A stretch of 64,000 nucleotides of DNA, taken from a virus (Duplodnaviria > Caudoviricetes). Below are positions 27,296-54,506 of this stretch, in pieces (position 1 is the stretch's first letter; every line of letters begins with the position of its first letter). A program made the translations under genes and the position numbers. Under the pieces are notes generated by a model. That model did not search any database and had not been told where the DNA came from. It saw only the letters and a list, made by a program, of their open reading frames with translations. Location of the stretch: positions 96,001 through 160,000 of the IMG/VR virus record IMGVR_UViG_3300013212_000088. One strand, given 5' to 3'.

Positions 27296-29656
27296 TTAAA
27301 TCAATTTGAAGTTTGACTTTTTCTTTAATTCTGGATGATCGTTTAATATTTGCTCAATTGTATCTCCAGCATGATCAGGAGATTCTTTCAAAGCAGTACC
27401 TTCACCAGGAAGCAATCCATCCCAATAATTTGCAGCTTCATCATCTTCGAGCTTTTTAAATCCAGCAATTTTGACAAACTTACTTTCAATTTTAGCAAAA
27501 GCTGCGCTAGGTGATTCAATTGCTTTGGTATAGAAATCTTTAGTAAAGGAACCACTTAAAGCATCTTGCAAATTAGATAAGCCCTTAGATTCTAATTGGC
27601 TTAGCTTACTCTTTTCTTGAACAATGTCAGCTTGTAATGCGGTTTTTCTTTCACCAACTGCCGCAGCCTCCATCGCTTGTAGATTTTGAATTTTTTGTTT
27701 TTGTTCTGCAATTAAAGGTTCATTAAGTCTGTTAAGTTCCATTACATGACCAACTGCAAAAGGCCCACCTAAGGTTTTTTGAATTAGTTCAGCATCTGTA
27801 GCTGTTTGAGAACCGCCAAAGAATCTTATATCTCTTTGTTTCATTGATTGCTCAATGGTTGCGCCTTCTCTTTCTACTTCTAACTGCTCTTTTTTAATAT
27901 TGTCAATTTTAATCTTTAATTGATTTAAGTTAACTTTTAATTGTTCTACTTGGGCTGCTGCCTGTTCACTAGTAGACGAAACACCAGTCATGATTGTTGG
28001 ATTAGAAAGAATCTGTTGATATTTTTGAAGCAAAGTTTCACCAGCCATTACAGCTGCATTAGTGCTTTCCACCATAACACCAATCTTTTCTTTTACTTGT
28101 TCTGCACTATTATAGGCAACTTGCTTATCTTCACCAAGTTCTTTGACTATGGTTTTGATCATTCCAGCGTTTGTTCCGCCAGTTCCATAGTAAGAATTTT
28201 TTGCTGTTTCGTAATTCTTTATTGCTCTGTCAAACTTTTGTTGTTCTTGAGCAAAAAGATTTTTGTTCATAACTGCACCAAACACAGCTTCGGAAGTTTC
28301 TTGTAATGTTGCGTTTAAGTCACCTACATTTGTAGTGGATCCAGTTGTAACAAAATCCAGTCCTGCACTTAAAGCTTTTTTAAAATTAGGTGCCCCAGCT
28401 ACAGCTGCAACATAGTTTCTCAATTCTCCACTTAATCTAGTGACTTCAGCTGCATTTCCGCTTATTGATGCATTATTAAGTGCTACCATTGCGTTTATTG
28501 CTTTTGAAGCATTAACATTGAAAATAGGATTTATCCCGAGTAATGGAGTTTTTTTAATATCCTCTTGAAGTTTTGTGTCAAGCTCATTTTTTAAGATTCT
28601 AGGGTCCATATTTGCTGCTGTTCTTACATTTGCAACCTTGACAAACTTATAGGTGGAATCAGATACTGTAATTCCTGGAGAAAATGGAGCTTGGACTCTT
28701 TGTGCCTTGCCTGGGACTAGCTCAGTTGTTGCTTGTTCAGACAATGAGTAACCAATATTAAGTGTATAGAAAATACTTCGTACTAGTCCCAATACTGGAG
28801 CAAAGTTTTTAAATGCTCCTTGAGCAAACTGATAAAGATTTTTTTCTGCTTCCAAAAACTTTGGTGCTTCTAAACCTTGTTGAAGGCCTCTTGCTAATCC
28901 TAACTCTTGTAAGGATCTCTTTGTAGCATCCATTGCTTTTTGGGTTGTTGAAACAATTTGTTCAGCAGATGATTGTCCATGACCAACTGCATGAGCTAAA
29001 GCTCTACTAAACTTAACTTGTAATTTAGGGTCTCCAATCATTAAAGAGAAAAACTCTTTGCCTGAAGTATTTTTTGAACGAGCACACTTAGTTATAAACT
29101 CTATAACTCCTAAACCCAAAAGTTCATTTTCAATTTCTGCTGCATTCTGAACAACTAATTTTACTTGCTGAATATTATGGTTTCTTTGCCAAATAATTAT
29201 TCCTAAATCTAAAATCTTTTCAAGATATGTAGATCCAACAACATTTAAAAACATTTCTAGGAGTTCAATTGTTTGGTCAATCCTGCTATCTTGTGACATT
29301 TTTGCCATTGCAGCAGGGTTTTTGATATCAAATTGAGATGGAAAGAATGAATCAAACTTAGCTTGAGGAACCCCTTCTTTAAGATATTCATCTTTCAGAA
29401 GGGAGACTTTTCTCACAACATCTGCAGTGTTTTCAAACTCTTTATATTGGCTTTTTTTGGATTGCTCTAAAGCATCGTCAACTATCTCTTCCCCAAAGCC
29501 CTTGGATTTATTTCCAAAAGCATCTTGAAGTGCTTTTACTTGAACAGCAGAAAGCGCCCCTTCTGCTAAACCTGCAGCGCCTGCTTCAGCCGCTCCAGCT
29601 GCCAAAGCGGCAGCTCCTGGAATCGCTAATGGGTTAGCTATTTTGACGAATTTCAT
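27296..29656 (-). CDS. Ala-rich helical/coiled-coil protein, candidate internal virion protein, with three KFVK[IV]A motifs
   Basis: 786 aa. MKFVKIA at the N-terminus, YKFVKVANVRTAA at about 28615-28651, SKFVKIAG at about 27461-27484; coiled-coil-like C-terminal half. Confidence 0.6.
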   Translation of the reverse strand: MKFVKIANPLAIPGAAALAAGAAEAGAAGLAEGALSAVQVKALQDAFGNKSKGFGEEIVDDALEQSKKSQYKEFENTADVVRKVSLLKDEYLKEGVPQAKFDSFFPSQFDIKNPAAMAKMSQDSRIDQTIELLEMFLNVVGSTYLEKILDLGIIIWQRNHNIQQVKLVVQNAAEIENELLGLGVIEFITKCARSKNTSGKEFFSLMIGDPKLQVKFSRALAHAVGHGQSSAEQIVSTTQKAMDATKRSLQELGLARGLQQGLEAPKFLEAEKNLYQFAQGAFKNFAPVLGLVRSIFYTLNIGYSLSEQATTELVPGKAQRVQAPFSPGITVSDSTYKFVKVANVRTAANMDPRILKNELDTKLQEDIKKTPLLGINPIFNVNASKAINAMVALNNASISGNAAEVTRLSGELRNYVAAVAGAPNFKKALSAGLDFVTTGSTTNVGDLNATLQETSEAVFGAVMNKNLFAQEQQKFDRAIKNYETAKNSYYGTGGTNAGMIKTIVKELGEDKQVAYNSAEQVKEKIGVMVESTNAAVMAGETLLQKYQQILSNPTIMTGVSSTSEQAAAQVEQLKVNLNQLKIKIDNIKKEQLEVEREGATIEQSMKQRDIRFFGGSQTATDAELIQKTLGGPFAVGHVMELNRLNEPLIAEQKQKIQNLQAMEAAAVGERKTALQADIVQEKSKLSQLESKGLSNLQDALSGSFTKDFYTKAIESPSAAFAKIESKFVKIAGFKKLEDDEAANYWDGLLPGEGTALKESPDHAGDTIEQILNDHPELKKKSNFKLI

Positions 29657-29658
29657 AA

Positions 29659-29838
29659 TTAATCTTTTGCTATAATTTTATAAGTAGATGTTGAGCAGTG
29701 AGGACATTTGCCATGCAAAGCATTCCTGGAACTCTTCATAGTAACAACTTTTGGTCCAGTAACTGTGACCATAGTTCTACATTTTACACAGTACATAGGA
29801 TGCGTTTTTGTAGCATCTTTAATTTCGGTATCAGCCAT
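29659..29838 (-). CDS. Small Zn-ribbon protein, DUF5679-like (59 aa; below the ORF-track cutoff)
   Basis: Translated by hand: MADTEIKDATKTHPMYCVKCRTMVTVTGPKVVTMKSSRNALHGKCPHCSTSTYKIIAKD*. The YCVKC..VTMK..GKCPHC pattern matches DUF5679; SD AGGAG upstream. Confidence 0.8.
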   Translation of the reverse strand: MADTEIKDATKTHPMYCVKCRTMVTVTGPKVVTMKSSRNALHGKCPHCSTSTYKIIAKD

Positions 29839-53134: not shown

Positions 53135-53135
53135 A

Positions 53136-54506
53136 TTAACTACCTTTCTTCCTTGATACTTTGTAATATAATTCAACAGGATGCTCGGAAACTAAACTTG
53201 CCCAAAATCCAGGATGTATTTCTTCTGGTGAAACCTTAACTTTGTAAACTTTAAATGATGACCTTCTGTCGTTACAGTAGTTAGTATCACCAAAATCAAT
53301 AGCTTCTTGCGGAGATGTGGCTAATAAAGAACCTGCTCTTAGTGATTGTAAATTAATTCTAGAACCATGATAAAATACATACTTATCGCCTTCTCTTTGA
53401 ACTTTATGTCTTTCGCACCATTGTTCATTAGATTCTGGTTCGATTTGAGCTTTTTTAACGCTTGCTGTGATTACTGGATTACGAGGATCAAACTCAATGT
53501 TTTCTCTGGCATGTTTGATATTTTCAGGATTCCAAGTAATGTAATGTTTTATCGTCTTATTATTGGAATACATTCTGAAAAATTCATTAGGATTCATAAC
53601 AATACTGTCGTGACCTAAGGAATTAACAAATCTTTGAAATATTTCACCCTTAAAGATAACACCTTGATCTTGGTCATGAAATTCTAAAATCCCTTTCAAT
53701 CTATCCATCATCATTGTTGCAGATGACATACCATCAACAGATCCAGTTGTATATTGAATTAAGTCTTCGCAAATTTCATAAGCAGTATCAGATTCAAAAT
53801 AATCAAGTAAAATGTTGTAAAGTTTAAAAATTGCTGTTTTGTAAGAATTATTATCAGATTCATCAACATCATTATCATTCAAAAAATCTAATGATTCATT
53901 TGTATCATCAATAAAAGTTTTTTCTGGATGTTCAGCATCATTTTCAGATGTCAAGTGTAAGGGATTTTTCATCCTTACGTGTGCTGGAATTACTCTAGGT
54001 GTATTTGGTCCTAAAACTGTATCTCTGGCAATTTGTCTTATCAAATAATTTGGGTTATACGGCTTGCGGTTTTCTAGAAAATAATCTTCATATCTTGGAT
54101 CATGGCCATAATTATTCCATAAATAATATTGGTCTAGATCATCTTCTTCACCTAATTGATACTCTAGATTTTCTATATTTACAAGTTGGTCAGGTCCAGT
54201 GCCAGTATAATTCTTGTTGGCATCTTCTTGGTCTGAGGTAAAGTAAAAACCCCGACCAAACACATTGGAAGCTGTTCCTTTGTTGATATCAAATTGGTTA
54301 AACTGGTGTGTAGTACCATGATAAACAGGCTGATTAGGTACCACATGACCCCTAGACCAATCACTATAAAATAAACTAGGGGTTGGTTTTTGTGTTTCTA
54401 ATAATTCTTGCCTCGGCTGCCTTTCAGTTTTAGGTTTTTCTTTAACTGGTTCTTGAGCAACACCCATCCCAGGCAATTGTAATTGTTGTGAATATTTGTA
54501 CCACAT
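53136..54506 (-). CDS. Tandem ADP-ribosyltransferase-like protein (ART-PolyVal-like domain plus a second small ART-like domain)
   Basis: Start revised to MWYKYSQQ at 54506. Domain 1: VYHGTT..F..FD..FGRGFYFTS..A..Y..VIPAHVRMKNP..GHDSIV..WNPENIKH..FDPRNP. Domain 2: FYHGS..LLATSPQEA..VYKVKVSPEEI. Confidence 0.7.
   Translation of the reverse strand: MWYKYSQQLQLPGMGVAQEPVKEKPKTERQPRQELLETQKPTPSLFYSDWSRGHVVPNQPVYHGTTHQFNQFDINKGTASNVFGRGFYFTSDQEDANKNYTGTGPDQLVNIENLEYQLGEEDDLDQYYLWNNYGHDPRYEDYFLENRKPYNPNYLIRQIARDTVLGPNTPRVIPAHVRMKNPLHLTSENDAEHPEKTFIDDTNESLDFLNDNDVDESDNNSYKTAIFKLYNILLDYFESDTAYEICEDLIQYTTGSVDGMSSATMMMDRLKGILEFHDQDQGVIFKGEIFQRFVNSLGHDSIVMNPNEFFRMYSNNKTIKHYITWNPENIKHARENIEFDPRNPVITASVKKAQIEPESNEQWCERHKVQREGDKYVFYHGSRINLQSLRAGSLLATSPQEAIDFGDTNYCNDRRSSFKVYKVKVSPEEIHPGFWASLVSEHPVELYYKVSRKKGS

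Follow-up and report, generated by a model that had tools for sequence, protein, structure and literature searches.

The 64,000-nucleotide (nt) stretch analysed here (the window) covers bases 96,001-160,000 of a 261,424-bp IMG/VR record from an uncultivated lake phage with a 261-kb genome, about 32% G+C and estimated to be 73% complete. Two genes on its minus strand, g110 and g111, encode proteins that begin with Met-Trp-Tyr (MWY), the second being an ADP-ribosyltransferase (ART)-like protein, and related short motifs recur in the proteins g087, g096 and g098 (Table 1). The gene set of 246 genes was produced with a codon-usage caller made for this analysis and covers 95.5% of the sequence. Among cultured phages Bacillus phage G is the closest relative; its portal protein shares 31.6% identity across 58% of the query (E 1e-66), and a DNA similarity search of the region against cultured phages gave no match. 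The clade to which this phage belongs marks at least 23 unrelated proteins with a very short N-terminal peptide, the consensus of which is M-W-Y-[KR]-x-[AS].

Residues 60-104 of g111 match Pfam ART-PolyVal with 41.9 bits (cut-off 31.2) and DUF3990 with 36 bits, and its orthologues in related phages begin MWY[KR][ILY][AS]QQLQLPG. The g110 protein matched no family in Pfam or PHROG, and proteins weakly related to it in relatives begin MWYRTAQS and MWYKLAQS. All peptides cited in the initial annotation, from MWYSRIKTA, MWYKYSQ, MKRTWYQTAKQ and MKFVKIA to MTSNIKSA..KVAS..QRVAQ, KFVKIA and VKKAQ, are present where it had placed them (Table 1).

Genome-wide, seven called proteins begin with MWY against 0.12 expected by composition (Poisson 7e-11), and two of the seven are those of the window. 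Two more open reading frames (ORFs) can begin in the same way, namely an uncalled ORF of 98 residues and an alternative start of a Fic-domain gene. The genome has 13 ATGTGGTAY sites, 9 of which coincide with ORF starts. Among 1200 dipeptide and gapped patterns compared between residues 2-13 and protein interiors, with no prior choice, WY ranks first and KxA fourth. Under a null model that keeps the composition of each N-terminal position, a hydrophobic residue followed by [KR]-x-Ala ([ILVMFYW][KR]xA) is found in residues 2-13 of 21 N-termini against 4.8 expected (p<=2e-4), and in 15 against 4.3 when the MWY proteins are left out. The motif is enriched over background at N-termini, as the proposal of the initial annotation requires.

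The constraint lies in the peptide. We surveyed 82 distinct MWY-initiated ORFs from the genome and its relatives, in which Tyr is encoded by TAT in 51 cases and by TAC in 31, Lys or Arg by seven codons and Ala by three, and the DNA upstream has only a purine-rich ribosome-binding region in common; variable synonymous codons and unconserved upstream DNA place the selection at the level of the protein. A signal at the RNA or DNA level, such as a translation-initiation context or a repressor site over the start codon, or common ancestry of the tagged genes as paralogues, could be argued from the tandem arrangement of some of them (g230-g232 here; five in a row in the relative G001) and from the 14 nt shared by g110 and g111 across their starts (TTAATATGTGGTAC, found exactly twice). 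This shared stretch had been pointed out in the initial annotation and the 14-nt identity is real, but the TTAAT upstream of both genes is a coincidence, absent from the other MWY genes, whose upstream DNA is unrelated. The free variation of codons and upstream DNA counts against a nucleic-acid signal, and without their first 14 residues the 82 ORFs sort into 23 families between which BLASTP detects no similarity, a result that counts against paralogy. Both explanations are very improbable and can be regarded as largely excluded. In 18 of the 23 families the tag has [KR] at position 4 and [AS] at position 6, and minority starts read MWYS[KR][IT]x(1-3)A or MWY[KR]x[VI]x[AS].

The tag is a property of the clade. 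In four relatives ATGTGGTAY is more frequent than its reversed control (17 vs 2, 18 vs 7, 11 vs 5 and 6 vs 1), site-by-site inspection of two of them found about 16 and 10 sites that begin real ORFs, and the number of tagged genes per genome is 9-16. A 21-nt degenerate pattern for MWY[KR]xAQ had only 70 matches in 2.9 million IMG/VR contigs; 61 of them begin ORFs of at least 60 residues, and many lie on known relatives or on other contigs of 100-440 kb. In the 60 related loci that extend upstream of the portal gene, the small gene directly upstream of it begins MWY in 57 and MSWY in the three most distant, hence without exception. Residues 15-60 of this portal-adjacent protein are poorly conserved, and in one relative a tagged CCA-adding-type enzyme occupies the slot. 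In the distant subclade no further MSWY-tagged gene was found beyond the portal-adjacent one, with a pattern that is blind to CGN-coded Arg. Nineteen genes have a loose form of a putative late-promoter pattern in the 120 nt upstream of them; six of these genes are tagged (hypergeometric p 0.004), g098 and the ART gene among them, and this association gives weak backing to the tagged proteins being head cargo. Our literature search found no paper describing the MWY tag, nor one that gives a cleavage motif for phages of the G lineage, and what is new here is the definition of the tag with its clade-wide census, the list of cargo enzymes, the portal-adjacent tagged gene and the fusion/fission evidence.

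Table 1. Tagged and motif-bearing features. Positions refer to the window unless marked as genome; a slash within a motif marks the presumed cut.
Feature	Position (nt)	Strand	Remarks
g111, 456-aa MWY-tagged ADP-ribosyltransferase-like protein	53136..54506	-	Pfam
g111 tag MWYKYS	54489-54506	-	cited as MWYKYSQ, start 54506
g111 internal VKKA/Q	53445..53459	-	residues 350-354
g111 C-terminal add-on domain	53136..53444	-	102 residues
g110, 278-aa MWY-tagged protein	52298..53134	-
g110 tag MWYSRIKTA	53108-53134	-	start 53134
g098, 228-aa conserved protein	37598..38284	+	just upstream of the head-tail adaptor gene
g098 near-N-terminal WY-x-T-A (MKRTWYQTA)	37598-37624	+	cited as MKRTWYQTAKQ, start 37598
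g096, 142-aa Met/Gly-rich protein	36566..36994	+	MTSNIKSA..KVAS..QRVAQ from 36566
g096 QRVA/Q	36635-36649	+	residues 24-28
Head-tail adaptor gene	38277..38771	+	Pfam Phage_Mu_Gp36, 32 bits (cut-off 24.7); PHROG 195, E 4.5e-8
g087, 786-aa all-alpha protein	27296..29656	-	three KFVK[IV]A copies
g087 copy 1, MKFVKIA/N	29636-29656	-	MKFVKIA start 29656
g087 copy 2, YKFVKVA/N, then VRTA/A	28616-28648	-	KFVKVANVRTAA = 28613-28648
g087 copy 3, SKFVKIA/G	27464-27481	-
98-aa ORF, MWYRLSKNNG	genome 54227-54523 (L003:14227-14523)	+	uncalled; overlaps next called gene by about 65 nt
Fic/DOC gene	genome 245715-246344 (L010:5715-6344)	-	Pfam, 53.8 bits; two possible starts

The best single argument for what the end of the tag does comes from g111 itself. 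Its orthologues have 360-361 residues and end exactly where g111 reads ...VITASVKKA/QIEPES, the slash marking the presumed cut. The add-on domain of g111 beyond this point is 69% identical (E 1e-55) to a stand-alone gene of 113 residues in G001, which starts MWYKSA/QMTFMQSPETNEEW, and in both proteins K-x-A-Q stands 3-7 residues before a conserved PE[ST]NE[EQ]W. The same domain is therefore preceded by K-x-A-Q both ways, within the MWY tag when it is a separate protein and at an internal joint lacking MWY when it is fused. Judged by this alignment, the end of the tag is equivalent to an internal domain joint, and because of the fusion K-x-A-Q is best read as a putative separating site, with MWY needed only at a true N-terminus. 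VKKA/Q, one of the apparent domain boundaries of the initial annotation, thus lies at a natural fusion joint.

The second line of evidence lies in the head module, outside the window, which comprises a 284-aa major capsid protein (PHROG 2522), the portal protein, acidic scaffold-like proteins, the large terminase and a 1401-aa protease-scaffold protein, residues 52-242 of which match the head maturation protease family PHROG 18299 (E 1e-16). When all 246 proteins were ranked by their excess of hydrophobic-[KR]-x-Ala over their own shuffled sequences, the top three belonged to this module. A 158-aa protein has six such sites against 0.67 expected, a 351-aa scaffold-like protein eight against 1.4, five of them of the form [MIV]KTA (KMKTA/K, KMKTA/S, NIKTA/Q, LVKTA/A and TVKTA/N), and the protease-scaffold protein 12 against 4.7. 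In an alignment of 15 protease domains of 46-88% identity, His126 (YTNHKND) and Ser177 (DVSMG) are invariant, and the domain is bracketed by conserved MYRVA/K, HMLKTA/S and CLRVA/E (292-296); the most distant relatives have V[KR]TS/S instead of LKTA/S. Portal N-termini carry [KR]TA/[AQ] just ahead of the conserved core.

These results bear on the possibility that MWY is a docking or sorting signal that stays on the protein and leads elsewhere than the capsid interior, for example to a replication or assembly compartment, a chaperone or the tail and baseplate, the likeness to [KR]-x-A being incidental. It would accommodate the tags that lack [KR] at P3 (the third residue before the presumed cut) or Ala/Ser at position 6, as well as the tagged NUDIX, CCA-adding and J-domain enzymes, which would be useful in the cytoplasm, and the phage does have DnaK- and DnaJ-like genes. 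We nevertheless consider it unlikely. The fusion joint retains K-x-A/Q and loses MWY, which is more in keeping with a cut site than with docking; every locus has the tag on the portal-adjacent gene; and the scaffold-like, protease and portal proteins are where [KR]-x-A accumulates.

Cleavage after Ala could also be the work of another enzyme, either a second phage protease or a host protease of the Prp/L27 type, in which case processing would not be tied to the prohead. A gene about 11-14 kb ahead of the window encodes a signal-peptidase-I-like protein with a GNSMLPSL box and an N-terminal membrane anchor. Like Prp, signal peptidases cleave behind Ala, and two N-termini elsewhere in the genome, NLNSFRFA/Q and MKNNFRFA/Q, resemble the L27 propeptide. 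Set against this, the tagged proteins have no hydrophobic signal-peptide core, signal peptidase I prefers a small residue at P3, where Lys or Arg stands here, no member of the Prp family was found in the genome, and the motif stands on either side of the head protease domain and in many copies in the scaffold-like proteins. We regard such an enzyme as improbable.

In the relatives L046 and L079, whose protease-scaffold gene lies downstream of the portal, the protease alignment breaks right after the invariant DVSMGC and continues into unrelated sequence (L046:13200-13568 and L079:12900-13293), and their protease-scaffold ORFs are about 400 residues longer than the others, with 1806 and 1780 aa against about 1400; the insertion looks like an intein at the Cys of the catalytic site. 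The portal gene (L011:6653-9031; genome 176653-179031, minus strand) encodes a C-terminal DUF559/REase_MTES_1575 domain, a Vsr-like endonuclease, at residues of about 704-775, after a low-complexity stretch rich in Met, Gly and Pro.

Within the window, the adaptor gene places g096-g098 in the neck and head-completion module. The orthologues of g098, 38-57% identical, keep the WY motif (MRRSWYQTSK, MSPWYKTAK, MLRSWYPLAK and MSWYTPQS), and W-Y-x-x-[AS]-K is found within their first ten residues down to 42% identity. The positional orthologues of g096 in all four relatives have [KR][IV]A/Q 13-38 residues from the start (KKIAQ, TKVAQ, RRIAQ and IKIAQ), in N-terminal regions that cannot be aligned; two of the four were found by search at 22-26% identity and two were assigned by conserved gene order. 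Of the motifs that the initial annotation had listed in g096, QRVA/Q is conserved in the orthologues, but NIKSA and KVAS are not. Both proteins keep their sites where the flanks diverge. The proteome has three matches to KF[VI]K[IVT]A, all of them in g087, and the three copies are kept in homologues of 77-95% identity except for one Gly in place of Ala. A low-confidence, all-helical AlphaFold2 (AF2) model, used for the layout of secondary structure only, places copies 2 and 3 in its two longest stretches outside helices (302-346 and 722-738). The search for distant homologues gave one weak match in five relatives and only the 77-95% identical homologues in a search of 5.8 billion proteins, and the ESM Atlas offered no usable lead; since no deeper homologues were found, the g087 sites are the weaker case.

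Interspersed with the neck-module genes are an RNA-ligase-like gene at window positions 35100-36446 (PHROG 562, E 1e-18) and a double-zinc-ribbon protein gene (Pfam DZR) at 37004-37564, which in relatives keeps its place between the genes for the 142-aa and the WY protein. Low-complexity runs rich in Met and Gly, partly also Pro, such as GGMGGMGGGMPGMPM and MGGMGGGMMGGMNPMMGGMGG, recur in several head-module or tagged proteins (window 36650-36750, g055 and the C-termini of the portal and protease-scaffold proteins). PHROG searches with the neighbouring large genes and the tail-side genes matched almost nothing. At window positions 22001-26000 the G+C content falls to 0.23-0.24, against about 0.32 elsewhere, with a strong negative AT skew; this region lies inside a gene at 21923-27271 whose 1782-aa product belongs to no Pfam or PHROG family.

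The proteins that carry the tag are mostly single-domain proteins of 95-650 aa. Above the Pfam cut-offs they include, in this genome, the ART-PolyVal/DUF3990 protein, a J-domain (DnaJ) protein and, if its MWY start is used, the Fic protein, and in relatives NUDIX, NUDIX+HAD_SAK_2, PcfJ-like, NlpC/P60 and PolyA_pol+HD (CCA-adding-type) proteins, most of the remainder having no family. Many tag bearers are host-modifying enzymes, of a kind known to be injected. The upstream start of the Fic gene gives MWYTWLGNNM, an atypical tag with neither Lys/Arg nor Ala, and the 98-aa ORF is probably a real tagged gene because a 95-aa homologue beginning MWYRLAEE exists in the relative G002. One locus of G001 (L089; G001:225390-229290, minus strand) has five consecutive MWY genes (MWYRTAID, MWYRKAID, MWYRESGK, MWYREAVT and MWYKFAAY), none with a Pfam family, and may be viewed as a 'cargo island' like g230-g232.

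The nature of these enzymes raises a further alternative, that host or phage AAA+ proteases read the tag as an N-terminal degron, or as a signal for stability, which would time the turnover of potentially toxic enzymes. The ART, Fic and NlpC/P60 cargo may be toxic, and short N-terminal motifs that mix hydrophobic and basic residues are recognition signals of ClpX. Phage G encodes both ClpX and ClpP (PMC12484599). No ClpP was found in our record, at its estimated completeness, however, and a degron would leave the portal-adjacent tag, the [KR]-x-A sites of the scaffold-like proteins and the fusion joint unexplained. We rate it as slightly more improbable still than cutting by another enzyme.

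Taken with these alternatives, we lean narrowly towards the tag being an address similar to the capsid-targeting sequence (CTS) of T4 combined with an Ala-specific cleavage site, which together would serve prohead cargo. The last four residues of the tag, Tyr-Lys/Arg-x-Ala, would be one case of a general hydrophobic-[KR]-x-Ala site that is cut on its C-terminal side by the phage's head-maturation serine protease, the N-terminal domain of the protease-scaffold protein. The tag would draw a protein into the core of the assembling prohead, cleavage after Ala (or Ser) would release the cargo inside the capsid, and the cargo would leave with the DNA at the next infection. Internal sites, such as VKKA/Q in the ART protein and the three KFVK[IV]A of g087, would separate domains once inside the head, and longer propeptides ending in [KR][IV]A/Q would be removed likewise from the 142-aa protein, the portal, the scaffold-like proteins and the protease itself. 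Overall this would be an analogue of the T4 CTS and its protease gp21, with another peptide and with Ala instead of Glu at P1. A finer version, which we hold only tentatively, is a portable code of two parts, in which MWY is the address for the prohead core, possibly docking on the protease-scaffold protein, and [KR]-x-Ala is the scissile site; that the protease-scaffold protein itself is the tag receptor is speculative. The Ala-specific capsid-targeting code put forward in the initial annotation is partly supported: all computational tests of it came out as predicted, whereas that the proteins are cut behind Ala, by which enzyme, and that they are packaged in the head is what we infer from sequence.

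Several observations weigh against the proposed address and cleavage site. Hydrophobic-K-x-A, a common pattern of amphipathic helices, occurs proteome-wide 245 times against 162 expected, 1.5-fold over shuffles, so that single sites predict poorly and many of them are probably uncut. About one fifth of the tagged families have no [KR] at P3 (MWYSKTILA, MWYKQVLA and MWYTWLG). Phages also use NUDIX, CCA-adding and J-domain proteins as ordinary enzymes of the cytoplasm. The protease domain had no Pfam S21 match in the genome search, its AF2 model reached a predicted local distance difference test (pLDDT) score of 56, and its top Foldseek match, the protease of Kaposi's sarcoma-associated herpesvirus (KSHV), was not significant (E 0.076, TM 0.19-0.27). 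The model of g087 is of low confidence as well (pLDDT 51), and phage G shows no excess of MWY, with five sites against five in the control. In addition, searches of PDB sequences with the protease domain, as a single sequence and as a profile, returned only noise, and the domain matched PHROG 18299 and no Pfam family, no comparison aimed at gp21/S77 having been made. Not every N-terminal hydrophobic-K-x-A match is a candidate cut site: some form the first helix of another, longer tag, a helical hairpin (LIKLAK..), which in some proteins itself ends in [IT]KIA/Q.

In T4 as in the present phage, one short N-terminal peptide is the sole feature common to diverse proteins. The T4 CTS has about 10 residues, is of the MKTYQEFIAE type and ends in Glu, whereas the tag described here has 6-9 residues, begins with MWY and ends in Ala or Ser; having no sequence similarity to the CTS, the tag would be a functional analogue at most. 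The T4 peptide directs diverse proteins into the scaffolding core (PMC3012670), and its cargo includes Alt, an ADP-ribosyltransferase that is packaged and injected (PMC5512222), just as an ART is among the proteins tagged here. The present tag ends in a motif that is enriched in head-assembly proteins, another likeness. The systems differ in that the protease here is fused to a scaffold-like tail of 1100 residues, in the larger and more enzymatic cargo set of the present phages, and in that targeting and cleavage are experimental findings in T4 and deductions from sequence here.

The arrangement of an N-terminal protease on a scaffold protein, with CLRVA/E closing the protease domain, is reminiscent of herpesvirus assemblin (MEROPS S21), which has a Ser-His-His catalytic triad. 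No herpesvirus is known to load enzymes by N-terminal tags. The release and maturation sites of pUL26 of pseudorabies virus (PrV), YLQA-T and VQA-S, are cut after Ala (PMC4498786). The protease considered here differs from assemblin by the lack of an S21 or significant KSHV fold match noted above and by the Lys/Arg at P3. The phiKZ/SPN3US group, jumbo phages whose head-protein propeptides end in a short motif, resembles what is proposed for our phage. Their cleavage motif ends in Glu, no uniform N-terminal tag like MWY has been described for them, and they form a lineage other than that of phage G, the nearest here. Many of their head proteins, ejected ones included, lose N-terminal propeptides to the proteases gp175 and gp245, and some propeptides hold several copies of the motif, with Val preferred at P4 and Ser at P1' (PMC10052503).

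Polyvalent proteins, known from phages and conjugative elements, join 2-15 conflict-related domains in one polypeptide; those encoded by phages are predicted to be encapsidated and to reach the host along with the DNA (Iyer et al. 2017; PMC5512222). The tagged ART matches Pfam ART-PolyVal, named for these proteins, and the overlap is limited to the domain repertoire; PcfJ and NlpC/P60 were not found named in the text of that paper. In the present phages most domains have a small gene and a tag to themselves, and the one two-domain fusion is joined at the presumed cut site. We did not assign the tagged proteins, mostly single-domain and of the sizes given above, to the polyvalent class. Processing of the Prp/L27 type, as in Staphylococcus phage 80alpha, likewise did not match: the phage genome has no Peptidase_Prp, and the MWY tags are unlike the L27-like propeptide, which ends FFA/S and is cut by the Prp cysteine protease.

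In phage G, the protease gp19 has VKIA, VKTA, VKIA and LKIA near its ends. The head-module proteins gp5, gp8, gp9, gp10, gp17 and gp20 share a near-N-terminal [ST]R[IL]KK, several of them with annotated TTG or GTG starts, and this motif may be the phage G counterpart of the tag; gp10 (MKKSRLKKVSFDGGGG) resembles the portal-adjacent protein of the present phage (MWYRIKKAQFGGG).

For only a few phages, among them T4, P1 and those of the phiKZ/SPN3US group, is it known by what rule proteins travel in the head and enter the host together with the DNA. If our reading is true, the tag lists from sequence alone the injected enzymes of a clade of uncultivated freshwater jumbo phages, the injected set comprising ART, Fic, NUDIX, CCA-adding, J-domain, NlpC/P60 and PcfJ-like proteins together with many of unknown function. 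Dozens of hypothetical genes of lake jumbo phages would thereby become a testable list of first-strike effectors and counter-defence enzymes. The tag would also offer a six-residue handle for loading cargo into large capsids, and the natural fusion that retains K-x-A-Q internally provides a ready-made way to separate the address from the cut site. The strategy known from T4 would then have arisen in the phage G lineage as well, with a different peptide and an Ala-specific protease.

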